Assembly (NCBI GenBank): GCA_012026655.1
Contig: JAAILG010000009.1
Span: 62,001 to 126,000 of the forward strand
DNA: 64,000 nt
Direction of reading: 5' to 3'
From: Hydrolagus affinis
Taxonomy: Eukaryota
Of this stretch, positions 1 through 24,177 are shown in pieces. The notes below the pieces were generated by a model. That model worked only from the letters and a program-made list of their open reading frames with translations. It made no database searches and was not told where the DNA came from. Positions within the stretch are counted from its first letter, which is position 1, and each line of letters starts with the position of its first letter. The position numbers and the translations under genes are program-made.

Positions 1-1
1 C

Positions 2-1087
2 CTCCGACAACCCTTCTCCAAACCGCGGGTTCGGAGGCCGATCCAACCCCCACCCGACTTGTCGGGAGGAACCAGCCGCGATCCCGAAAGGGCTGCCGTC
101 CAATTCACCCAGTCGGCTTTCAGAAAATGCGAGGAGACGTTTAGGAACGTCATGGGGGCTCTGAGGATCACCAGCCCCCCTCCCACTGCTCACAACCCGT
201 GCAACCGCGCCTGCGATCCGGTCCTGAGAAAGTGTCTGCCAACTGGGAATCCTCAGCCACACAAAATGCCCTGCGGGACCCCTCACCCCGCCACCTCCGA
301 TAGAAGCGTCCAATGTAGTCGCCATCCCTCTCCTCCGAGCAACTGTGAACGTTTGATCCCAGAAACCAGGGTTGAGGCTTTTAGCCAGACCGGGCTCCCC
401 TCCTCCCCCCACCGCGGGCTCCCGACTCGGCCCAAGCGCAAGAGGGCTGCAGATCCCGTGGTCCACATCTGCTGCGTCACTGGGACTTCCTCGTTCGCGT
501 CGCCTCCACCCGAGGAACCGGCCGGCAGCAAGAGCAACCTGGAATCCCCGTCAAGGGATTCAACCCCCCGGAGGTTTGGCCGTCAGAGACGCCTCCCCAA
601 ACGGGAGAAACAGACCTGTCCAAGGTGCCTGAAACCTACATACAGGAGCTTCCCGGTTTACTTGGCGGAAACGTGCCTCGGGCCTCAGGATTTGGCCTCG
701 GTCCCGCCTGTCAACTCACAGGACCAGACGAGCTGGAGACAGAACGAGCCGAAGCCTGGATGTGACCCATGTACCACGTCCCCACGATCAGTTTCGGAAA
801 TATTTTACATGCCACCGAAACCCTCTAAGACCGTCAGAAATTCCAGTGAAACTATGTGGTGTAGCTCCCCTCAACCCGGTACCATCAGGTTTTGTAAATC
901 TGCTGAACCCAGTGCGGTGAAATCCTGCAGCCCGGCAGCCCCCAGCTCAATGACCTCGTATGCCTCTTCCAAACCCAGTACATCCACCATCTTCATGTCT
1001 CCGGAGATGTGCCTTTTCACTCCAAACCCCGCCTCGGTTCCTCGCAACACATCACCAGATAACTACCCGAGAACGTGTCAAACCTAA
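2..1087 (+). CDS. 3' part of a Pro/Ser/Cys-rich protein gene, truncated by the window edge; possibly a further member of the sHSP-tail cluster
   Basis: The frame is open from base 2 (LRQPFSKPRVRRP...) to TAA at 1085-1087, so the TTG start at 59 in the ORF track is not a real start. It is GC-rich against an AT-rich flank, with AATAAA at 1442. P/S/C/T-rich composition and one PQPGT motif resemble the tails of the downstream genes. No alpha-crystallin domain is visible within the window. Confidence 0.6.
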   Translation, partial: LRQPFSKPRVRRPIQPPPDLSGGTSRDPERAAVQFTQSAFRKCEETFRNVMGALRITSPPPTAHNPCNRACDPVLRKCLPTGNPQPHKMPCGTPHPATSDRSVQCSRHPSPPSNCERLIPETRVEAFSQTGLPSSPHRGLPTRPKRKRAADPVVHICCVTGTSSFASPPPEEPAGSKSNLESPSRDSTPRRFGRQRRLPKREKQTCPRCLKPTYRSFPVYLAETCLGPQDLASVPPVNSQDQTSWRQNEPKPGCDPCTTSPRSVSEIFYMPPKPSKTVRNSSETMWCSSPQPGTIRFCKSAEPSAVKSCSPAAPSSMTSYASSKPSTSTIFMSPEMCLFTPNPASVPRNTSPDNYPRTCQT

Positions 1088-3329: not shown

Positions 3330-3369
3330 TTTCATCACAGAGGTGTATGAGAGGCGTGTGTGACTTCAC
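3330..3369 (+). promoter_or_regulatory. Conserved upstream element of sHSP gene A (CRE-like core TGACTTCA)
   Basis: TTTCATCACAGAGGTGTATGAGAGGCGTGTGTGACTTCAC aligns with elements upstream of gene E (18701-18738, minus) and gene D (16838-16875, minus). Confidence 0.55.
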
Positions 3370-3470
3370 CTTTTACAAACCCGTGTCGTAAAGAAAAGGC
3401 ATTGCCCCTCTCTCGCCCACCTCTTTTCAGAAAAGCCATGAACCTGTAACTGGTGTGAAGTGGGTCAACT

Positions 3471-5864
3471 ATGAATGAAGATGATTCCTTGTTCGATGGG
3501 AATTACGACAATTGGATGGAAAACCTGACACTCCCACCCCCAGAGCCGATCGTTGGGAAGGAGAAATACAGGGTCTGTTTGCACCTGGGAGACATAGGGG
3601 CGGAAAATGTCAACATGTCAGTGCTGGATAACGTGGTGACCGTGGCCGGGCATTTGTCGGAGACGAATGAGGACGAGGATGGAATGATCAGGGAAAGCTT
3701 CCACGGGTTTTCCAACGAATTCGGTCTCCCCCAAGGCGTGAATCCAGATACCCTGACAGCCAACGTGATGGACAACCAAACGCTGGAGATCGAAGCCAAC
3801 TATTTCTCTGAGCCTCTGGATGACACGTTCGTCCCTGGAGAAATCTCCCAACCCGGTATGGACTTCAGCACAATCTCAACAATCTCACCTTCAACTCATA
3901 ACGTAACATCCCAACCTCCGCCCAAGGGATGCAAAAGAAAATCGGGAAACCCCCCAGCCAACACCAGTTGTCCACTCAACGCTTGTGAGCGCAGTGCCGT
4001 GCCTCAGTCAGGTGCTCTGGGGACTTCAATGAATACATCCACTCGTCCACCCAATCCATGTGAATGCAATGCCTTGGCTAAGTCAGCGTTGAGGACTTCA
4101 GCGACCACATCCAGTTGTCCACTCAACCCTTGTGAGCGCAGTGCCTTGCCTCAGTCAGCCCCGGGGACTTCAGTGAATACATCCAGTTGCCCACTCAGTC
4201 CATGTGAACGCAGTGCCTTGGCTCAATCAGCCCTTGGGACTTCAATGAACACATCCAGTTGTCCACTCAATCCCCGTGAACCCAGTGCCCTGGCTAAGTC
4301 AGCGTTGAGAACTTCAGTGAACATACCCAGCTGTCCACTCAGCACCTGTCAACGTCGCCCTGCAGCAAAGAATTCTTCAATGAACACCGCCAGCTGCCCA
4401 CTCAGTCCTCGGGCACGCAGTGCAGTGCCTCATCGCTGCAAACAGAGCTGCCCAAAGAACACCTGCAGCTGTCCTCGAAGACCTTGTCCATGCAATTCTG
4501 CAGCACAGAGGTCTGTAATGAACACCTCCAGCTGTCCTCGTCGTCCTTGTCCATGCGGCAATGCAGCACAGGGATCTGCAACGAACACCTCAAGTTGTCC
4601 AATCAGCCCTTGTCAGCGCCGTGCCATCGCCCAACCACACATCCAAGGATCCTCCGACAATATGTGCACCTTCCCCCGCAGCCCCTCTGTGCGAGGTTCA
4701 CGGGCCAACCAATGTGGCCTGGGAGCCCTTCCAAACAGCCAAAGTAGTCTGGCAGCCCTTCAAACCAGCCAAGTTGGCCCTGGAGCCCTTCAAATCAGCC
4801 AAGTTGGCATGGGACCCCTTCAAACCAGCCAAGGTGTCATGGGACCCCTTCAAACCAGCCAAGGTGTCATGGGACCCCTTCAAACCAGCCAAGTTGGCCT
4901 GGGACCCCTTCAGACCAGCCTAGGTGGCATGGGACCCCTTCAAACTTGCCAAGTTGGCCTGGGACCCCTTCAAACCAGCCTAGGTGGCTTGGGACCCCTT
5001 CAAACCAGCCAAGTTGGCATGGGACCCCTTCAAACCAGCCAAGTTGGCCTGGGACCCCTTCAAACCAGCCTACGTGGCTTGGGACCCCTTCAAACCAGCC
5101 AAGTTGGCCTGGGACCCCTTCAAACCAGCCAAGTTGGCATGGGACCCCTTCAAACCAGCCAAGTTGGCATGGGACCCCTTCAAACCTGCCAAGTTGGCAT
5201 GGGACCCCTTCAAACCAGCCTAGGTGGCTTGGGACCCCTTCAAACCAGCCAAGTTGGCCTGGGACCCCTTCAAACCAGCCAAGGGAGCATGGGACCCCTT
5301 CAAACCTGCCAAGTTGGCATGGGACCCCTTCAAACCAGCCTAGGTGGCTTGGGACCCCTTCAAACCAGCCAAGTTGGCCTGGGAGCCCTTCCAAACAGCC
5401 AACGTCGCCTGGCAGCCCTTCAAAACAGCCAAAGAGGCCTGAGAAGCTCATTGCAGCAGCTCAACCCTTCACTGCCACAGAGATCACGGAGCGTCGTGGG
5501 ATCTGCTTTTAACACCTCCGCTCTATCAAAGAATTCCCTTCCGCTCGCTGGACTGGAAGAACAAGTCAGCCAGACACTCAACTTAAATGGCAACCCTTAC
5601 ACAAGGGACCAGCCAGATGCCCCCCTGAATCAGACCTTTAAGTCCTTATTATCAGAGTCCGTTGCTTCAACCAGATCCATGTTGAAACCTGGCACACGCT
5701 GCCATAGCCCTACTGCTGTTTGCGTCCCACACGTCGACTACAAGATACCTGGCACACGGTGTGTCCCTGCACCCCGCAATCAAAATAGCTGCAAAGCAGG
5801 AAACCAAACGCGCTCTCAGTCACAGCATGGAAATATTAGCGGTATGGATGCCCCTGTTAATTGA
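3471..5864 (+). CDS. sHSP cluster gene A: alpha-crystallin domain + 24-aa Cys/Pro repeats + 10-aa G(L/M)GPLQTSQV repeats + twin PGT motif (797 aa, uninterrupted CDS)
   Basis: The N-terminal KYRVCLHLGDIGAENVNMSVLDNVVTVAGH...FHGFSNEFGLPQGVNPDTLTANVMDNQTLEIEA fits the beta3-beta9 pattern of HSP20/alpha-crystallin domains (F-x-x-x-F-x-L-P-x-x-V-[DN]-P...L-x-I-x-A). The 2.4-kb frame stays open through both repeat arrays. ATTAAA at 6155. Confidence 0.88.
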   Translation: MNEDDSLFDGNYDNWMENLTLPPPEPIVGKEKYRVCLHLGDIGAENVNMSVLDNVVTVAGHLSETNEDEDGMIRESFHGFSNEFGLPQGVNPDTLTANVMDNQTLEIEANYFSEPLDDTFVPGEISQPGMDFSTISTISPSTHNVTSQPPPKGCKRKSGNPPANTSCPLNACERSAVPQSGALGTSMNTSTRPPNPCECNALAKSALRTSATTSSCPLNPCERSALPQSAPGTSVNTSSCPLSPCERSALAQSALGTSMNTSSCPLNPREPSALAKSALRTSVNIPSCPLSTCQRRPAAKNSSMNTASCPLSPRARSAVPHRCKQSCPKNTCSCPRRPCPCNSAAQRSVMNTSSCPRRPCPCGNAAQGSATNTSSCPISPCQRRAIAQPHIQGSSDNMCTFPRSPSVRGSRANQCGLGALPNSQSSLAALQTSQVGPGALQISQVGMGPLQTSQGVMGPLQTSQGVMGPLQTSQVGLGPLQTSLGGMGPLQTCQVGLGPLQTSLGGLGPLQTSQVGMGPLQTSQVGLGPLQTSLRGLGPLQTSQVGLGPLQTSQVGMGPLQTSQVGMGPLQTCQVGMGPLQTSLGGLGPLQTSQVGLGPLQTSQGSMGPLQTCQVGMGPLQTSLGGLGPLQTSQVGLGALPNSQRRLAALQNSQRGLRSSLQQLNPSLPQRSRSVVGSAFNTSALSKNSLPLAGLEEQVSQTLNLNGNPYTRDQPDAPLNQTFKSLLSESVASTRSMLKPGTRCHSPTAVCVPHVDYKIPGTRCVPAPRNQNSCKAGNQTRSQSQHGNISGMDAPVN
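3960..4620 (+). repeat. Coding 72-bp (24-aa) tandem repeat, consensus approx. TSSCPLNPCERSALPQSAxGTSxN, degenerating toward the 3' end
   Basis: ccagttg recurs at 4111, 4183 and 4255 (72-bp period). About 6 good units are followed by degenerate SCPRRPCPC units. Confidence 0.85.
4711..5440 (+). repeat. Coding 30-bp minisatellite, about 24 units (aagttggc[ac]tgggaccccttcaaaccagcc)
   Basis: Exact 30-bp periodicity from 4721 to 5430 with no indels and no spacers; encodes G(L/M)GPLQTSQV. Confidence 0.97.
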
Positions 5865-7515: not shown

Positions 7516-8441
7516 TGCAACTTCCTACACCCATCTACACTACTTACCCGAGTCTCCGATCTTAGTGTTGTATGTAAACTTGGATACAAAACTTTCTATT
7601 CCTTCATCCAAGTCATTTATATGCATGTATATATATATATATATATATATAGATTATATATACACGGTAAATAGCTGAAGTCCCAGTTCAGACCCCTGGG
7701 GGACACCACTTATCACATCTCTAATTGGAGAATGTTCCTTACTCTCTGTTTCCAGCCTCCCAACCAATTGCCAAGTCAAGTCACCTCCGCCTCCTAGTGT
7801 TTCCATTTTCGTTGAAAGAGTTACTGAGAAGCCTTATTGTAATCCACATAGCAGGTTCTCTGCAAAACAACACCTCACCTGCCATCTTGGGAGCCTGACA
7901 ACACTCTGTCATGTAAAACAGCCACACTTCAATGGTGAGCGGGTGAGTGTTGTGTTGTCCCATAATGCCAGGGACCATGATCTGTGTCCGTGTTAAGCGT
8001 TGTGGTCACGATGACCTCTCACTTACACAACAACAACAGCTTCGATTGATTCAGCGCCCTCCACGCCGGAGACGGCGTCTCAGAGCGCTTATAAGGGGAC
8101 TGATACGCTTTCTCAGGGGTCGTGATTAGTCCACCACGACAACAAAAGGCAACGGACCTGACAATGAACTTCCAAATCCATGTGCTCCCCTCAACACGCT
8201 ACATGATGTTTTTTGGGGGAGAGATTTGATTTGACGTGGTGAAAACCGCGGAAAGTGATGCTTCAAACCCACTAGCTTGTGTGATCTCACGCTTACGCAC
8301 CGGCAGACAGACCCCCGTGTAGCTTTCGGGAAGTTATGAAACCTTTTTTGATTTACGCAAAAGTCGGACTTTTAAACCTCGGATTAAACCTCGGTCCGGA
8401 TTTGATATTTAGAGGAAAACCAAGCGGAGGTATGAACCAAC

Positions 8442-9098
8442 ATGGATCCTCGCCGTAACAAGTTTTACGTCTGTTTAAACTTGGGGAACATTTCCCCGGA
8501 GAATGTGCAGGCTTACATCACGGACAGGATCGTGGATATTATTGGGAAAAGCGAGCAGGTGACCGAGGAGGCGGACGGGATGATCAGGAGGAACTATCAC
8601 GGCTTTTCTAACAAATTCGGGCTCCCACCGGGAGTAGACCCCAACACCTTGCTGCTCACTGTGCCCGACGGGAGGACCTTGATCATCGAAGCCGAATACC
8701 TCAAACACGAAGATCAGAACCCAAACCCCGCGGATTCGACCTGCCCTCGAATGGCGCCCGACCCCTGGAGCAGGTCCATCTACCACTACCCCCCACCGCC
8801 CGTCCCCACGCCGCGCACAGTGTTTCACACCAACTCTGCCTACGATCCCACCTCCGCCGATGAGAACTCGGGAGGTTTGATCTCATCCAGGGTCCCGACC
8901 CCTTTCCACCCGGTGCCCATGCCTCGACAGACCGTCACGCACAATGTCTCGTTGCCCTCCCAGTCTCCGGTGTGGTACGGGTCCTCCTCGGCAATCCACC
9001 CCAAGACGAGGTCGAAGAGGAGGAGACACCATTCCTATCACGAAGGCATGGCGGCTGACAACATGTCCCACGTACAAAGGATGAACCAGACGTTTTAA
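8442..9098 (+). CDS. sHSP cluster gene B: alpha-crystallin domain + Pro-rich tail (218 aa)
   Basis: KFYVCLNLGNISPENVQAYITDRIVDIIGK...DGMIRRNYHGFSNKFGLPPGVDPNTLLLTVPDGRTLIIEA is a clear paralog of the gene A domain. Good Kozak context (aacATGG). AATAAA at 9424. Confidence 0.88.
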   Translation: MDPRRNKFYVCLNLGNISPENVQAYITDRIVDIIGKSEQVTEEADGMIRRNYHGFSNKFGLPPGVDPNTLLLTVPDGRTLIIEAEYLKHEDQNPNPADSTCPRMAPDPWSRSIYHYPPPPVPTPRTVFHTNSAYDPTSADENSGGLISSRVPTPFHPVPMPRQTVTHNVSLPSQSPVWYGSSSAIHPKTRSKRRRHHSYHEGMAADNMSHVQRMNQTF

Positions 9099-10063: not shown

Positions 10064-11696
10064 ATTCCATTCAAATTGTTTTTGATGTTAATGTCTCATC
10101 TGAAGAATTACATCTCTGAGAATGCAACGCCCCCCCTTAATAACGGGGAAAGTTTTCACTTTTTGCAGCACTAATTCTTCAATTTTGTTGGACTACAGTT
10201 CACCCCACAAGCAAAAGGACTTTCTAACAAGGGACAAACATCTACTACTGAATTTGCTCAACAATCCACAACCTCTATAAAGAGAGACATGCATACTTAC
10301 CAATATCTCTGCCTTCCTATTTTAGAATAGCTGTTTAGAAGCTGTCTAGAAGCAGACTTTTTTTTATGGAGATTCACTTCATGTACCTTTTTGTGTGACA
10401 TTATCAAAGTTCACAGCAAGTTAGTTAATCAAGATGACCATGTCTTCATATTTTTTGTATCTTCATATCTTTTTTCAATATTTCTGTTTTGATCTTTTGA
10501 TGATTGTGGTATAGTTATTATACACTGATAAATGAACCAACTCTCTTTTGGAGAACAACCAATTTAGTTGCATTTCCAATCTGCTTAGGACGTCCTCCTG
10601 ACACGAAAGGTGCTATACAAGTGTAATATTGTTGTTGTTGTTTGTAAACTTGTTGAATCCGAATGCAAGGATTATTATTATACTTGAAGCTTAGGACAGA
10701 AATCATGTGTATGCAGTTCACAGCATCCTGAAATGGAGGTGAAGCTAGGAAAAGGATCTTTCAGCTACAAAGATATTTCTATTCGGGTAACTTCTGTTAT
10801 TTCACTACTTATTGAATTGTTTTCTTTGTGGAGCCTTCTCCAAGTGGTGACAAGTGACAAACATACCTCGTCAGGGGGAAACGTATCCATGTAGGATTCT
10901 GTCCCATATTACAGAAGGCACACAGACTGTTTGCCCACAGTCACTCCTTGATCCCTGCATTCAAAAGAATAATAATCCTTGCATGTGATACAGCGCTTTT
11001 CACATCTACTAGACATCTCAAAGCGCTTCACAGAATATACGGTAAGGTGAACTGATTGTATATTTGTGGGTGAAATATAGCTACGATCCACCGGCTTTGA
11101 ATACAATCCCCCAGCAGTGACACTGTGAGGTTCTGCGCCAGTGACATCATGAATGAGAAAGATTGCTATCTCTGATCCATTGTTTAATTCATGACATAGT
11201 GGGTCACAGCTTCAAAAAATAAGCTTCCACCAACAATCACTTTTTAGAGCAGGGAAGCAAGAATTGATTGTACAAAACATTGGTAAGTGTAAAGATATCT
11301 CCCTATCAAATCCAAATATCCAACCCATTGAATATCGGTCCCAACCTACTTCCAAAGACGTGTTGAGGTGTTATATCAAATGCAAGGATTATTATTATCA
11401 TTACTGAATCAAAGTATCTCTAATATTCCAAATTCTGGCCTCAACCACCCTTCCTGATTTCCGAATGACTGATGAATTGTGTGAATAGGAGATGGCTTAG
11501 TTCAAATTTTAGTAGGAAGGAGAGTGAAAAACTGGGTTTTAAAGTTACCCCCCTCTCCCCCCACTCCCTCTCTCAACAAGAATGAAAATGACAACTTCAG
11601 CATTATACATTCATTTCCTAGTGAGAAATATCTAAAATACACATATCATCTTTTTTTCCATATGCTGTTGTTTTCAGGAAAATGAACCTGTGAATT

Positions 11697-14600
11697 ATGC
11701 AAAATTTTTCTGCAAAGGTTGCTTCGGAATCTGGCCCAAGATCAGGAATTCAGACTGAAGGTTTAACGAAAGAGAAAGAGGAGATTAAGGGAGGTGGAGA
11801 GCAGCCTGTAGCACAATGTGTGATGTCCCAAGAGCCATTTTGCTTTTCTACCAGTCTCCAGGGTGTTTCTCCAGAGAAAGTAGTGGTGAAGGTTAAGGAC
11901 AGGAAGGTGTCCATCTGCGGAGAACACATTGAGAAGAAAGAAGATGATGGAATAATCAAATATACCTTTCACGGTTTTTCAACCATATTTGATCTCCCCC
12001 TGGAAGTAGATCCAAATTCTCTAACTGTCACTGTGTCAGATGGTAGAACTTTGAAAATTGCATCCCAGCAAGTCACATCATACGACACCAAAAGCAAGGA
12101 AAATGATGCTGATGCTATGAACAGTTACTCTCCAACTCTCTCCTTGGAGGCAAAACCCCCAGTATGCAATGCAGATTCAGAAAGTATTCCAGTCTTTGCC
12201 AAAGAAACAAACATCATGAAACAAAATGAGCCGGAGGCAAAAGGTATCTTGATATCAATTCCAAAGGCACAGACCCCTAAAGGCACCCTCACCAACCAAT
12301 TACCTGCCACAAAAGAACCTTATCCACCAACACCTCTTATAGAAACAATTATAGTGCCTACTCTGCAGACACACACTACCACAACACAAACTGTGGACAC
12401 GTTATTCATCCCAGCACAAGCCACAAATGTAAGCACCTTTCCAATGTCTGGTGTGGAACTGCGCACCAAAATGATAAATGAACCTGAGATACTTACCAGC
12501 CTCATTCTTAACTTGCGGGCACTGTTATCTGCTGCCCCTGAGTCACAAAGGAACTTTGTGCCAGCCATCCTTGAGGCAGATGTCAATGTACCCAATCCGG
12601 ACGTCCATACTATCTCAGTACCTAACCTGGATACATCCCCCACCCAGATATCTAACTCAGAAATGCACAACATTCTTTTATGTTTTTCTGAGGTGCACAA
12701 TGTCCCAGGTGATGCTCCCGAGACACTTACCTGCCTTGCACCCTACACTAAAGTACATATCAACCCAGCAAGTCCTCCTGAGACTTACAAAAATACTCTG
12801 ACACACATGAATGAGACAAGCATAGCAGTGGGCATCCCCGAGTTACATACTGATACAAAACCAACCAATGACACCAAACCATTGCTACCCTTAGAGGCAT
12901 TCACCACCCCAATACCACTCCCAAGGAAACGCAACATCGAAACAGCAGCCGCTCCTGAGACAAGCACCTCTCTTTTATTCATCCCCAGGAACCATGATCC
13001 GTCCCTGGTGCCCACCAGTGAGAAACGCACAGCCCCAATACCTGCCCCAAGGAGATACAATATCTTCCCAGCATACACTTCTGAGAAACAACCGTTTCCT
13101 GTGCCTGCTCCCAGGAGATACAGCATCTACCCTGCATACAATCCCGAAACACACACTTTACCAAAACCTGCCCCAAGAAGTTACAGCATCACAGCAGTAC
13201 CCACTACTGAGTCAATAAGAATTTCTGTACCTCACCCAATGATGAATGATGAAGCTCTCCTGCTAGCCACTCATGATACAAGCAGTGGCTCTATAGCTAA
13301 CTCTGAGAAATGTAAATCCACATTACCTACTCCTGATACAAGCTTCACTGATTTATATATGCCCAGGAAACGGAGCACTTCCCCAACACAACGTTCAGAG
13401 ACTCACACTTCTGTATATGGCCCAAGGAGAAACATCTACCCAGCAAACGCTCCTGTACCTGCTCCGAGGAGATACATCAGCTCCCCAGCATATGTTCCTA
13501 AGACACTCACTCCTTCTGCGACTCATTCAGGGAAACATGAAGCATCCACTCCTGATATGCATGTCTCTCAAAAGCATGTCCCAAAGAAGCACAGCTCCTG
13601 CACAGCATCCACTCCTGAGAGGCACACCTCTCATGCCAAGACCCCAAGAAAATACTCCAACTCCCCAGGACTCAATGCTGAGTTAGAAACTTCTCCAGAA
13701 CCCATCCCAAAACGATACAGCACCTCACTAGCACAAGCTCCTGAAACCTCTCCTGTGCATGATCCAAAGCCACATGAGGCTTCACAAGTCTCCGCTCTTG
13801 ATACAATCACCTCTCGTGGACAACCCAAGAAGAAGCACATCTCTTCCTCAACACCTGCTCCCGACCAACAGATCTCTCCCAGAAGTGACCAGAGACAAAG
13901 TGGCTTCTCCCCAGAGCGCAGTGCTGAGAAACACAAATCTCCTAAACATAATCAGAGGAAACACATCCCTTTTCCTGAACCTACTCCTGAGCAATACACC
14001 TCTCCTGGGCAAACCCGTAGGAACCAAGTCCGCTCCCCAGTATCTGCTGATCAGCAGCACATCTCTCCCATACTCACCCCCAGGAATCGTAGCCCCTCCC
14101 CAACAGCCAATCCTGATGCAAATAATTCTTCCTTACAATCCCCCACGAAACGCAGCCCCTCTCCATTATCCACTCCTGAGATAAGTGCATCTCATATACA
14201 TTTTTCCAGGAAACACAAAACGTCTCAAACACACCAAACTAATACAAGCACCTCTACTGTTCAACACCCACCAAAACGCAGCCCTTCCCCAATATCCACA
14301 GTGGAATTAAATACTTCTCTTATACATTTCCTCAGGAAAAACAGCAACTCCCCGGTCATGACTCCTGGCATGAGCTCTTCTCCCATATCTACCCCAGAGA
14401 AGGAAAACACATCCCCAGTACTTACTCCTGAGAAAAGCAGCTCTCTTATATATATGCGCAGTACTTCGCCCTTACCACCTCCTGAGAAAATCTCTCCCAT
14501 CTATAAACCATTGAAACGCAGCACCTCCCCATTGACAACTCCCGAGTTGAGCCCTTCTCTTTTACATTTCCTCATGAAACACAGTTCCGCAATATCCAAT

Positions 14601-14786
14601 CCTGACCCAACCACTTCTCCCGTTCATACTCCCAGGAAACGCAGCCCTTCTCCATTACCCGCATCCGAGATGAGCACCTCTCGCAAACATAATACCAGAA
14701 ATCGTAGCACCTCTCCAGTGTCCCCTTCAGGTTCGAGGAGCACCTCTCCAATATTGCCCAGAAAATACAAAACTTCCCATACTTAA
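11697..14786 (+). CDS. sHSP cluster gene C: alpha-crystallin domain + about 770 aa of degenerate 20/21-aa S/T/P-rich repeats (1029 aa, uninterrupted CDS)
   Basis: PFCFSTSLQGVSPEKVVVKVKDRKVSICGEHIEKKEDDGIIKYTFHGFSTIFDLPLEVDPNSLTVTVSDGRTLKIAS is an alpha-crystallin domain. The frame is open for 3.1 kb. A probable 5'UTR intron spans 11283-11677 (ttg|gtaagt ... tgttgttttcag|). Confidence 0.88.
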   Translation: MQNFSAKVASESGPRSGIQTEGLTKEKEEIKGGGEQPVAQCVMSQEPFCFSTSLQGVSPEKVVVKVKDRKVSICGEHIEKKEDDGIIKYTFHGFSTIFDLPLEVDPNSLTVTVSDGRTLKIASQQVTSYDTKSKENDADAMNSYSPTLSLEAKPPVCNADSESIPVFAKETNIMKQNEPEAKGILISIPKAQTPKGTLTNQLPATKEPYPPTPLIETIIVPTLQTHTTTTQTVDTLFIPAQATNVSTFPMSGVELRTKMINEPEILTSLILNLRALLSAAPESQRNFVPAILEADVNVPNPDVHTISVPNLDTSPTQISNSEMHNILLCFSEVHNVPGDAPETLTCLAPYTKVHINPASPPETYKNTLTHMNETSIAVGIPELHTDTKPTNDTKPLLPLEAFTTPIPLPRKRNIETAAAPETSTSLLFIPRNHDPSLVPTSEKRTAPIPAPRRYNIFPAYTSEKQPFPVPAPRRYSIYPAYNPETHTLPKPAPRSYSITAVPTTESIRISVPHPMMNDEALLLATHDTSSGSIANSEKCKSTLPTPDTSFTDLYMPRKRSTSPTQRSETHTSVYGPRRNIYPANAPVPAPRRYISSPAYVPKTLTPSATHSGKHEASTPDMHVSQKHVPKKHSSCTASTPERHTSHAKTPRKYSNSPGLNAELETSPEPIPKRYSTSLAQAPETSPVHDPKPHEASQVSALDTITSRGQPKKKHISSSTPAPDQQISPRSDQRQSGFSPERSAEKHKSPKHNQRKHIPFPEPTPEQYTSPGQTRRNQVRSPVSADQQHISPILTPRNRSPSPTANPDANNSSLQSPTKRSPSPLSTPEISASHIHFSRKHKTSQTHQTNTSTSTVQHPPKRSPSPISTVELNTSLIHFLRKNSNSPVMTPGMSSSPISTPEKENTSPVLTPEKSSSLIYMRSTSPLPPPEKISPIYKPLKRSTSPLTTPELSPSLLHFLMKHSSAISNPDPTTSPVHTPRKRSPSPLPASEMSTSRKHNTRNRSTSPVSPSGSRSTSPILPRKYKTSHT
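12480..14770 (+). repeat. Degenerate coding 60/63-bp tandem repeat in gene C
   Basis: PxPxPR units start at 12909, 13035, 13098 and 13161 (multiples of 63 bp). RSPSP/RSTSP...TPE units recur about every 21 aa near the C-terminus, with a recurring ctcctgag core. Confidence 0.8.
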
Positions 14787-16123: not shown

Positions 16124-16783
16124 TCAGCGCCATTGGGAATGAGGAGGAACAGTTTGGCGCAAGGTTGGTGGGTCAGTGAGAGGGTCGTTGAAACTGATTG
16201 AGGCATTAGGACAGGTGGTTCCGGGTATTGGATGATGACAGTGAGTAGCCATTTGGACTATTTGACCATTGCTTCGTGTCCCTGGAACTGGCACGAAACA
16301 GGGAGTCCAAACAAAATTAGCCTTTGTGCTACCTTTCACGTAGTTGGTGGTGTATTTTAGAAAGATCGGGACATTAGTAGAGTCCGATTGTTCCCCACCC
16401 CAAGCTGTCTCCTTCACCTGCACATGGTCAGGGTAGCAGGAAGCTTCGACTGTGATGATTTTCTCGTCGATGATTGTAGCGGTCAAGGTGTTTAGATCCA
16501 GTTTGGCAGAGAGTGGCAGGTCATTCGAGAAACCACAATAGTTGTATCTGCTTATTCCGGAGATGTCCTTAACCTTCTGGAATTGCTCTCCAGAGACATT
16601 CAGGGTTCTCCCGGTGACCATTACGTTCACATGTTCTGGATCCGTTCCTGCCAAGTGCAGGGAGAGAGAAAAATTGCATGGTTTCCTTTTTCGCCTTCCC
16701 ATCATTGGGTTAATTTCCAGTCCATTGTTGGCACTTCTGCGATCTGCGTAAGATCCATTATCATCCATAATTTGTGGTAACAT
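16124..16783 (-). CDS. sHSP cluster gene D: alpha-crystallin domain + twin PGT Cys/His tail (219 aa)
   Basis: FSLSLHLAGTDPEHVNVMVTGRTLNVSGEQ...SRYNYCGFSNDLPLSAKLDLNTLTATIIDEKIITVEA; co-linear paralog of gene E. AATAAA on the minus strand at 15914-15919. Confidence 0.85.
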   Translation of the reverse strand: MLPQIMDDNGSYADRRSANNGLEINPMMGRRKRKPCNFSLSLHLAGTDPEHVNVMVTGRTLNVSGEQFQKVKDISGISRYNYCGFSNDLPLSAKLDLNTLTATIIDEKIITVEASCYPDHVQVKETAWGGEQSDSTNVPIFLKYTTNYVKGSTKANFVWTPCFVPVPGTRSNGQIVQMATHCHHPIPGTTCPNASISFNDPLTDPPTLRQTVPPHSQWR

Positions 16784-17819
16784 AACTTTCTGAAAAGGCA
16801 GCTACATGAAACAGATGTCTTCTTGCAACACTGACTTGTAAGCATGACACACACTTGAACACCCTCTGTGACGAAATTAATTGTACTGTATAAAACTTGA
16901 TTTGAAAAAGCAAAATGTTACAAAATATATGCACAAAGTTTCCACAGGCAGGTATTCCATGTGCCTGTCAAAACCCGAGGGGTCAGTAGAGCCCAGAAAT
17001 GCCCAAATGAGATGATATATTGCTAGCTAATGGATTGTATAGTTATAATCTTAAAATAAATAAGGATTATGGTAATGTTGACAATGCACTAAAGCTGTTC
17101 CTCGTGCGTGCTGAAAGATTTCTGCTTACAAATCTGTGTCAACCTGGCTCAGTGATAGCACCCCCGCCTCTGAGTAAGAAGATTGTGGGTTCAACCTCGG
17201 TCCTTAGCGCTCCAATGCAATGTTAGGGATAGTGGGGATGGTGTTGACTTTCCATCCTTTCAATGAAAGTTTAAACTAATCCCATCAGGTGGATGTTAAA
17301 TATCCCATGGTATGATTCAAAAATAAGTGAGTTTCTCCCAGTGTCCTTGCCAACAATTCCCCCAAATAAAAATAGGTAATTCAATCCATGGCTATTTGCA
17401 GGACATGGCTGTGCGCAGCAGGCTTGCTGTCTCAATTTGTCCACAAAGCACACATGGTCAAAAAACTCTTTAAAGTAAATCCTGTGAAACTCTTTGAAAC
17501 ATCTCAACAACGTGATAAGGCGCTGTATGAAATGTAATAATAATTATTAAGTAACCTTCTATGGGGTAGATACAGTAGATTCTTACCTCTGGAAAATGAT
17601 CCACTAATTAACTAACAATTGGTTGTTACTTACCAGAGAGGTAACTTAGCTAACTGGAAAAACTGGAAAAAATCTTGAGGATGAAACTTTATTACAGCTG
17701 CTGATCAAGTAGTTGGTATTTCCAGCTCAAAAAAAAATGTTTACAGACAAAAAGCCCTTATTCCTTAATCACGGAAGAATGAGCCTGGCAAACTATACGG
17801 TGTTACTCAAGGACGTTTG

Positions 17820-17983: not shown

Positions 17984-18595
17984 TCAAGAGCTCTTCATTG
18001 TCTGTAAGCTAGAGATGAGGTTTGGTAAGAATCCGGAGATATCTGTAACCATACCCGGGGAGTTGTGGCAGAAAGTCCCAGGCAATGGGTGGTTGCACAC
18101 TCGGATCAACCCAGTCTGTTGGGATTCGCAGAGAGTTCCAGGTATCGGCAAGTAGCAGGGTGTCCAGAAAACGGGTTCCTCCATTAGAGAGACAGAGTGG
18201 GAAGAGTATTCGAAAGTGATGGGAAGAAGCTTTTGGGGGATTTCATCGGCATCCTGATGCTGGATTTTCAACAGGGTGTCTGTCTTGTGGTAAAAAGCTT
18301 GCACCGTGATCACTCTGTCATCCACAATGACCACCGCCAGAGTGCTCAAATCCAACCTTGGAGGCAGGTGGAGCTCGTTGGAAAAGCCACAGTAGTTGTA
18401 CCTGCTGATGCCTTCGCCCTCCTGAATCTTGCGTACATGTTGGCCTGAGATGTCCAATTCCCTGCCCCTGATGGTGACTTTCACGTTACGGGGGTCGATA
18501 CCTGCCAAGTTCAGGCGAAGTTCAAACCTCTCCTGTTGACTTTCGGCTGGGATCGGTCTCAGAGTGGAACCGTTTCCCGTTTCCATCTCAACCAT
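17984..18595 (-). CDS. sHSP cluster gene E: alpha-crystallin domain + twin PGT Cys/His tail (203 aa)
   Basis: ERFELRLNLAGIDPRNVKVTIRGRELDISGQH...GISRYNYCGFSNELHLPPRLDLSTLAVVIVDDRVITVQA. The tail WTPCYLPIPGT...CNHPLPGTFC matches gene D. AATAAA on the minus strand at 17898-17903. Confidence 0.87.
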   Translation of the reverse strand: MVEMETGNGSTLRPIPAESQQERFELRLNLAGIDPRNVKVTIRGRELDISGQHVRKIQEGEGISRYNYCGFSNELHLPPRLDLSTLAVVIVDDRVITVQAFYHKTDTLLKIQHQDADEIPQKLLPITFEYSSHSVSLMEEPVFWTPCYLPIPGTLCESQQTGLIRVCNHPLPGTFCHNSPGMVTDISGFLPNLISSLQTMKSS

Positions 18596-18700
18596 TCCTA
18601 CCTTTCAGGAGAGGGAGCAACACAGATCGACTTGTGGCTTTCATTTCCTTTCCACCCCCCCTGCCCCCTCCCTCACCCTCCCCCACCCAAAGACTTGGTA

Positions 18701-18738
18701 GTGAGATCACACACATCTTAGGCACCTCTATGATGAAA
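18701..18738 (-). promoter_or_regulatory. Conserved upstream element of sHSP gene E (CRE-like core TGATCTCA)
   Basis: The minus strand reads TTTCATCATAGAGGTGCCTAAGATGTGTGTGATCTCAC, about 105 bp upstream of the ATG. This is nearly the same spacing as in gene A. Confidence 0.55.
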
Positions 18739-23241: not shown

Positions 23242-24177
23242 GTGATTATTGGAAACAAAATCCACTCAGAACAAATTCAGTCAAAGACCCAAAGAATTTC
23301 CACCAGTTATCTAACGCATGGTTTATGGAAAAAACAACCAGAAAAGCTAACATCACGACCCGTGGAGAAACAACACAATATTCCAAAGACTGATGCACTT
23401 TTCATACACTTAGACAAAAACAATTACTATCAAATGAATCACTTCCCGATACAAACCAACATGGAATATGCAGGTCAGCAGTGGGAGCAATGGGGAGATT
23501 ATTATCCCGAGATTTATTCCCAAGGATTTTACGAAGGATATTCTTTCAACGGTGTTCTTGGTAACCATACAGATTATTTTCATCAACAGAATTATTTTAA
23601 TCATCCTACAATGTCATTAAGCAGGAGGTCACAGAATGTTCTCCTCAATCATGAAGCATCTCATCTAATAGGACAGCAGCAGGTAGAACACTACCAACAA
23701 ACTAACTCTTTACAAAGAACAGGATGTCCTGGTGGAAGTTTCTCATCAACCTCTCCTAGGGTGGTTCTAACTTCCAGGTCTGTCTTGTCTGCCAGCACAA
23801 GTGAAACAGAAACAGCAAAGCAGAACGAAATGCCCCAAATGTGTATCCTTGCTCTTGCCATGATGGTAGCTGGTATCCCCACAGTACCTGTGCCCAGAGT
23901 TAAAGCAGAGGATATGATATTGGCAGCTCAAAAGTTTAGAGCTGACAACCCAAATTTAAGTGGCGACATAGACAAAATGATGAAGGATAAAGAAGAGAGA
24001 AAAAGATCTTTTACTAAGGAGTACATGTTCTCTAATAATAGTACAGAGGAAAGAATCGACTGGAAGAGAACAAGGGAAAATACAATCCATTATCCACAAA
24101 TCAGTGTCCTGGTATTAGAAAGTGATGATCAGGCTGATGGAAAGAGACATAAGTCAAATGACTTGATGCTCACATAA
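23242..24177 (+). CDS. SPATA25: SPATA25-like (spermatogenesis-associated 25) main coding exon
   Basis: [37 protein letters not shown] matches my recollection of the SPATA25 hallmark ([32 protein letters not shown]), and an upstream GCPGG is also shared. The ORF begins right after an acceptor (tttttttgtacatag|gtg, 23241). A candidate upstream donor gag|gtgagt lies at 21848. The start codon is unresolved. AATAAA at 24509. Confidence 0.8.
   Translation: [311 protein letters not shown]

Follow-up and report, generated by a model that had tools for sequence, protein, structure and literature searches.

A conserved upstream element of a tandem sHSP gene cluster in the chimaera Hydrolagus affinis as a putative shared promoter module

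Introduction

The conserved sequence element of the clustered protocadherins features a shared promoter element in a cluster of tandem paralogs. Heat-shock elements represent another described type of upstream site and are built of three alternating nGAAn units. Strong binding of CREB to CRE sites depends critically on the central CpG, whose decay yields TGATGTCA or TGACATCA (PMC1796609). In the testis CRE/NR site TGAGGTCA, CREM no longer bound in EMSA once G at position 5 had been changed to T, and the reporter of a site without such binding was still inducible in cells (PMC2853129). Odf1 is a CREM target in mouse (PMC10454534). Moreover, haploid expression in mammals can be driven by promoters as short as about 100 nt (PMC2853129).

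The window, i.e. the whole stretch of DNA that was analysed, comprises 64,000 nucleotides of Hydrolagus affinis (assembly GCA_012026655.1, contig JAAILG010000009.1, positions 62,001 to 126,000 of the forward strand). A sequence-only reading of it had drawn attention to a non-coding element of about 40 bp ahead of sHSP paralogs, with a CRE-like core, and had proposed a promoter module co-regulating the cluster. The present analysis deals with the extent, distribution, conservation and possible meaning of this element.

Gene Cluster and Expression

Eleven ORFs with an alpha-crystallin domain are found between 36.8 and 80.6 kb of the contig (C9), P1-P6 outside the window and A-E inside it, and all five of the latter score above the Pfam HSP20 cut-off. 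Together with the domain-less gene X, sited between P6 and A, these sHSP paralogs form a tandem cluster of 12 genes (Table 1). No alpha-crystallin domain was detected in gene X, where a 16-residue hint at the ORF start was non-significant, and neither the proteins compared nor the atlas gave a match; it is possibly a paralog with the domain lost. Beyond P1, there are ORFs whose translations resemble what we take to be NEURL2, ACOT8 and SNX21. The best named relatives of the cluster proteins belong to sharks, skates, rays and Callorhinchus, and gene C stands very near a Callorhinchus protein in the protein tree. For gene B, a homolog search by word index gave no match and a profile search led to five proteins; a gene B search also matched a frog protein named ODF1 (E 2e-4). 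In the tree, which includes no mammalian ODF1, this frog protein is long-branched and falls outside the clade of the cluster proteins (support 90/86). A literature search whose coverage excluded most subscription journals found no description of this gene cluster, and the chondrichthyan sHSP-type cluster is apparently undescribed so far.

Some members and relatives of the cluster show structures of their own. P4 is one uninterrupted reading frame of about 2080 codons (C9:45932-52179) with long repeats after the alpha-crystallin domain. Gene A carries a tandem repeat of about 30 nt (window 4860-5450, GPLQTSQV-like units) in which several frames are open. The predicted Chiloscyllium protein GCC24974.1 has A-like and B-like domains fused in the order seen in this cluster, and is probably a gene-prediction fusion reflecting conserved cluster order. 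A further HSP20-family match, unlinked to the cluster (C9871:1803-2045), is interrupted by an in-frame TAA and is perhaps a pseudogene.

RNA evidence was taken from two raw runs of one sample of a close relative, with tissue not given, and 27-30% of each run was read. On C, D, E, X and the 5' end of A, depth was limited to repeats and to a trace (<1) in few bins elsewhere, neither splice junctions nor start sites appeared, and these regions are not detectably active in that one sample. Most of the RNA reads fall on a very abundant short repeat (window 8030-8090 and 10970-11075; C9 60800-60880), which in B, C and X precedes the element or the candidate first exon by 100-200 nt. Expression in testis is tentatively suggested by the flanking SPATA25-family gene, by tails that are basic or rich in Cys and Pro, and by a possible link to ODF1.

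Table 1. Genes of the cluster within or overlapping the window and the features upstream of them (window positions unless prefixed C9)
Feature	Position	Strand	Remarks
Gene X, 3' part	1..1087	+	576-aa Pro/Arg/Ser-rich ORF starting at C9:61357
Gene X, full ORF	C9:61357-63084		Arginine clusters present
Gene X, element copy	C9:61003-61040		Among the best-kept copies
Gene A, sHSP with long repetitive tail	3471..5864	+	797 aa; Pfam HSP20
Gene A, box 1	3330..3343	+	TTTCATCAYAG type; reverse strand TGATGAAA
Gene A, box 2	3356..3369	+	Near-palindrome; GTGACTTCAC in A, cluster consensus GTGATCTCAC
Gene A, box 3	3371..3397	+	TTAC ... CGTAA inverted pair, 11-nt spacer
Gene A, pyrimidine tract	3400..3435	+	Ends TTTTCAG-AAAAG; acceptor-like or initiator-like
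Gene A, upstream ORF	3438..3449	+	Three codons, M-N-L-stop
Gene B, sHSP	8442..9098	+	218 aa; Pfam HSP20
Gene B, partial element	8277..8296	+	Box 2 plus the initial half of box 3
Gene B, equivalent of TTTCAG-AAAG tract	8324..8338	+	CAG changed to CGG
Gene C, sHSP with long tail	11697..14786	+	1029 aa; Pfam HSP20
Gene C, upstream site	11142..11149	+	TGACATCA
Gene C, candidate 5'-UTR intron	11283..11677	+	395 nt; GTAAGT ... TTTTCAG
Gene C, shared tract	11671..11699	+	Holds M-N-L-stop upstream ORF
Gene C, upstream ORF	11682..11693		M-N-L-stop
P5, upstream ORF	C9:54484-54495		M-N-L-stop
P6, upstream ORF	C9:58114-58125		M-N-L-stop
Gene D, sHSP	16124..16783	-	219 aa; Pfam HSP20
Gene D, element	16817..16876	-	Half-CRE in box 1 (TGACG in reverse); partial deletion of box 2; GCAAG at the end of box 3
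Gene E, sHSP	17984..18595	-	203 aa; Pfam HSP20
Gene E, partial element	18701..18738	-	Boxes 1 and 2; G-rich tract in place of box 3
SPATA25-family gene	23434..24177	+	Cluster flank

Anatomy of the Element

The element is non-coding, about 65 nt long and composed of three boxes. Box 1, of the TTTCATCACAGAGGTG kind, is followed after about 11 variable letters by box 2 (GTGATCTCAC), and box 3 directly adjoins the latter with GCTTAC, an 11-nt spacer and CGTAAG. A second shared tract then precedes the ATG. Common to most genes is a pyrimidine tract ending TTTCAG-AAAG about 40-55 nt past box 3. In A, C, P5 and P6 there is additionally an M-N-L-stop upstream ORF, in frame with the main ORF in all four and varying between AAC and AAT and between TAA and TGA. 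In gene D, the stop homologous to that of M-N-L-stop reads CAA, resulting in an N-terminal extension. The G-rich tract of gene E (window 18650-18700) includes a donor-like GTGAG, with an AG following at 75 nt.

The five strings quoted in the sequence-only reading lie where they had been placed: A 3330-3369, B 8277-8290, D 16876-16838 and E 18738-18701 on the minus strand, and GTGACATCA of gene C at 11141. Its size of about 40 bp describes a real core but misses box 3, the element extending about 25 nt past the claimed 3' end (in A to 3393-3397). The claimed distance of 55-150 bp from the ATG is slightly exceeded in B, where the core lies 152-165 nt from the in-frame ATG (8442).

Not all copies are complete. 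Box 1 is kept in eight of nine copies, being degraded in X and deleted in B; box 2 is deleted in P2 and P5 and largely in D (3/9 copies); box 3 is missing in E, and its GTAAG half is deleted in B. As the boxes have been lost singly in different paralogs, no single box is indispensable, and this counts against a promoter, as does the varying spacing from box 1 to the ATG (-93 to -218, about -380 in X).

Distribution of the Element

Single degenerate boxes with two mismatches barely exceed chance in the window, their counts being attained in 16 and in 3 out of 100 shuffles. Models of the whole element provide a stronger test by out-of-sample recovery, which bears out the conserved element claimed ahead of the paralogs and finds it in 9 of 12 genes. 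An HMM made from A, B, D and E had as its five best new matches in 146 kb P1 (E 1.2e-8), P5 (3.7e-5), X (0.029), P6 (0.055) and P2 (0.055), the next match being at 0.43. The reverse HMM from the five outside copies returned A (5e-12), E (1.9e-5), D (3.9e-4) and B (0.47) as its top four, and a model of 40 nt only, from A, D and E, placed P2, P6, P1 and P5 first (E 0.004-0.98). The element is thus clear in nine of the 12 genes, once per gene and in the same orientation. In P4, the copy is faint (E 0.038; ninth among 1870 anchored sites), and the upstream region of P3 falls in an assembly gap. Gene C had also been named as a carrier, and it does have GTGACATCA, but this string is at most a candidate part of the element: one-mismatch CREs occur 3 times against about 2.4 expected, and the stretch before the candidate donor is only faintly element-like (rank 65 of 1870, not significant).

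Outside the paralogs, the SPATA25-family gene has no match to the element model upstream. A nine-copy HMM was run at 14 other loci (31 kb); nothing below E 3.5 was found at 10 other sHSP loci, and four pattern-match loci gave E 0.001-0.11 via box 1 only. In the upstream regions of the 12 genes, taken over 2.2 kb, no block other than the element is shared repeatedly; there are three other weak single matches (E 0.048).

A genome-wide motif count had been proposed against a dispersed repeat. It was run over 1.11 Gb with tight patterns rather than a profile, which covers close copies rather than diverged ones, and gave almost no outside matches; this near absence is the informative figure, the patterns having been derived from cluster copies. 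The 16-mer across boxes 2 and 3 has four matches, namely P1, P6, X and B (control 1). The combined pattern of boxes 1 and 2 has three of its four matches in the cluster (control 1), the fourth being without box 3, and the box 3 pattern has both of its two matches there (control 0). For the box 1 pattern alone, 3 of 7 matches lie in the cluster (control 10). Used as query, the P1 stretch matches itself alone. With the 16-mer occurring only four times, always in the cluster, the element is no dispersed repeat, and at the level of close copies it does not look like a transposon either: apart from one match at chance level, the 16-mer, the combined pattern and the box 3 pattern match inside the cluster only.

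Conservation and Age

Conservation was assessed in 28 pairs of the eight domain-bearing genes with the element. Their domains share 35% amino-acid identity, and four-fold sites are identical at 129 of 355 (36%), compared with 27% expected by composition. Over 70 nt from box 1, a window picked after the motif had been seen, the mean score is 33.8 vs 14.7 for shuffles, with p<0.01 in 22 of the 28 pairs. Three upstream windows score 14.0-16.9 and the downstream window 19.0. Near-saturated four-fold sites together with flanks at shuffle level point to selection on the element. The CpG of box 3 is retained in 6/7 copies. DNA of the close relative differs by only about 2-4%.

In a protein tree of 36 rows, none of them dropped, A, B, D, E, P2, P5 and P6 each cluster with a named shark, skate or ray protein. 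The duplications behind these seven paralogs are therefore older than the chimaera-shark split, which dates back more than 400 million years.

Promoter Module or Transcribed Leader

A regulatory function of the element is likely. It has been kept while neutral letters drifted, which makes it a likely shared on-switch for the cluster. We lean, with moderate confidence, to an inherited proximal promoter module of the tandem paralogs, bound by putative factors. The module, placed probably around the start site, would have been passed on in every tandem duplication and would turn on the genes of the cluster together, likely in one tissue and possibly in sperm or male germ cells. The element may act as DNA, and sequence-specific factors may bind the boxes. 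A promoter near the element is favoured by its being the sole repeatedly shared upstream block, by a CpG rise, and by the lack of a conserved RNA fold or Rfam match. CpG o/e roughly doubles from 0.38-0.58 upstream to 0.73-0.84 from -200 to +800 around box 1, a rise that overlaps coding sequence downstream and is not promoter-specific. At the RNA level, only one of nine copies folds better than shuffles at z below -3 (P6, z -3.5), RNAalifold found no consensus pair in the alignment, 38 of 500 shuffles equal the helix of box 3, and Rfam gave one chance-level match (E 0.38). A structured cis-regulatory RNA is not supported by these results.

The arrangement of GTAAG and then a pyrimidine tract with AG at 37-57 nt resembles a splice pair, which counts against a promoter. 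It would instead fit a transcribed leader that times translation or splicing, in which box 1 is the start, boxes 1-3 make up a first exon that is non-coding, measures about 58 nt and ends at a GTAAG donor, and a very short intron leads to the three-codon upstream ORF. The distance from the GTAAG-type site to the pyrimidine tract and AG is mostly 37-57 nt (A 43, P1 48-50, P5 52, P6 57, D and P4 37), with X at 85 and C at 395 nt. Candidate ultra-short introns with ends no more than 65 nt apart thus occur in A, P1, P5 and P6 with GT and in D and P4 with GC. Gene B has lost its donor-like and CAG sites both, M-N-L-stop stands in 4 of the 12 genes despite its AAC/AAT and TAA/TGA variation, and introns of 37-65 nt do exist in human (PMC4463651). 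However, the donors are weak, agreeing with 4-6 of nine consensus positions except in C (7/9), and C at position -1, disfavoured by donors, is kept in 6/7 copies. AACCTG is retained in P1, P3 and X though the upstream ATG is gone, and the fold results above speak against the leader too. It is regarded as the main, though doubtful, alternative to the promoter. Its most far-reaching form is improbable: a transcribed leader more than 400 million years old (exon of about 58 nt, intron of 37-57 nt, three-codon upstream ORF) would link, via a putative factor, the transcription of a dozen chondrichthyan genes for sperm structure to their delayed translation, a protamine-like gene without the crystallin domain among them.

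CRE and CREM

A narrower version, overlapping with the promoter module, holds that box 2 is a variant CRE through which CREM-tau drives the cluster. The CRE-like core on which it builds did not survive closer inspection: there is no perfect CRE, box 2 is TGATCTCA in five of six copies, and only A is one mismatch off. In the 600 nt upstream of 13 genes, the full CRE TGACGTCA is absent, one-mismatch CREs are at chance level (3 vs about 2.4 expected), and TGATCTCA occurs 5 times vs 0.4 expected. This sequence is two mismatches from CRE, at the critical central CG (PMC1796609), and has neither half-site (GTCA/TGAC). As CpG decay yields TGATGTCA or TGACATCA, not TGATCTCA, box 2 is no product of such decay. 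Read backwards as TGAGATCA, it departs from TGAGGTCA at position 5, on which binding depended (PMC2853129); the letter there is A, and the change made in that study was T. Furthermore, the box is absent in 3/9 copies.

Traces of CRE inside the element are limited to gene A, where TGACTTCA is one mismatch from CRE and unique among the copies, and to the half-site TGACG in box 1 of D. Both are in favour of CREM, along with CREM sites of which 17% have no CRE and 41% no half-CRE as worded in PMC3091680, the activation in cells by a site that had lost binding in EMSA (PMC2853129), and the presence of Odf1 among mouse CREM targets (PMC10454534). Weighed together, a CREM-tau switch acting through box 2 is unlikely, and the factor on the element is probably not CREM via this box.

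Longer Intron or Relic

The element could also be situated towards the 3' end of a longer 5'-UTR intron and serve there as an intronic enhancer or splicing element, the first exons being located further upstream. In A, C, D, P4 and P5, an acceptor-like tract precedes the ATG by 12-51 nt. The P4 ortholog of the electric ray Narcine has at least six accessions of predicted isoforms with N-termini differing just before a common start, X5 and X6 among them, the junction being deduced from protein only. These differing 5' ends suggest that the ortholog uses alternative 5' exons and that some cluster members may have upstream exons. Against this, the 2.2 kb upstream hold no shared exon or promoter block, and the room between neighbouring genes falls to about 1 kb (E to D), which renders such an intron rather improbable. 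Finally, a functionless relic of recent duplication or of short gene-conversion tracts, for which the identity of P1 and X at 37 of 41 letters (one genome compared) might speak, is very improbable in view of the near-saturated four-fold sites, the background-level flanks, an identical 16-mer in P1, P6, B and X of which P1, P6 and B come from different clades, and duplications that predate the split from sharks.

Other Factor Sites

Several other known sites resemble parts of the element. Box 1 on the reverse strand reads TGATGAAA in 5/8 copies and is thereby close to the ATF4 amino-acid response element TGATGMMAH (PMC3763548); the strict AARE/CARE form is found in 3/8 copies and TGATGNAAN in 5/8. 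Box 1 is also one letter short of the Y-box consensus (PMC6122464). At the junction of boxes 2 and 3, TCACGCTT in P1, P6, X and B recalls the Pax paired-domain site P6CON, but the TGA linker and the 3' part of the latter are unmatched and the core is missing in 5/9 copies (PMC7046147). With the TCACGC core in 4/9 copies and the TGA linker in none, a Pax site was rejected.

Regarding heat-shock arrays, their reported absence is upheld, as the 600-nt regions upstream of 13 genes include no perfect three-unit element; one-mismatch elements number 3 against about 2 expected, and two-unit TTCnnGAA sites 7 against about 2.8. A TATA at fixed distance, the PAR-bZIP consensus and C/EBP enrichment were likewise sought, and none was found; the lack of such a TATA counts against a promoter. 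The inverted half-sites TCAC/GTGA and TTAC/GTAA in the boxes suggest, by resemblance only, dimeric and possibly bZIP-type factors.

Comparison with Known Systems

The locus offers a short and sharply bounded candidate control sequence for a gene cluster older than the chimaera-shark split. Its nine natural variants with different box deletions amount to a ready-made mutational series, so that factor and tissue are directly testable. If these are spermatid genes, the locus would show how an old vertebrate lineage controls its sperm structural genes jointly in the absence of a standard CRE.

Compared with the human ultra-short introns, the GTAAG-to-AG distances of 37-57 nt are within the 37-65 nt range, whereas the candidates here, known from sequence, are mostly not G-rich and have weak donors (PMC4463651). 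The testis CRE and CRE-NR sites of CREM-tau share with the element a gene-proximal TGA..TCA near-palindrome lacking CpG (PMC2853129, PMC3091680). The gene A copy at one mismatch from CRE and a gene family possibly related to ODF1 are further points of likeness. The consensus TGATCTCA differs from these sites in being devoid of GTCA/TGAC halves, and box 2 is one of three boxes and dispensable in 3/9 copies.

A shared promoter of paralogs is a familiar kind of object. As in the protocadherins, a single non-coding block precedes each paralog in the same orientation, is private to the cluster and is conserved far above neutral divergence. Compared with the protocadherin element, that of the chimaera is longer, with about 65 nt and three boxes, and its boxes have been lost piecemeal.
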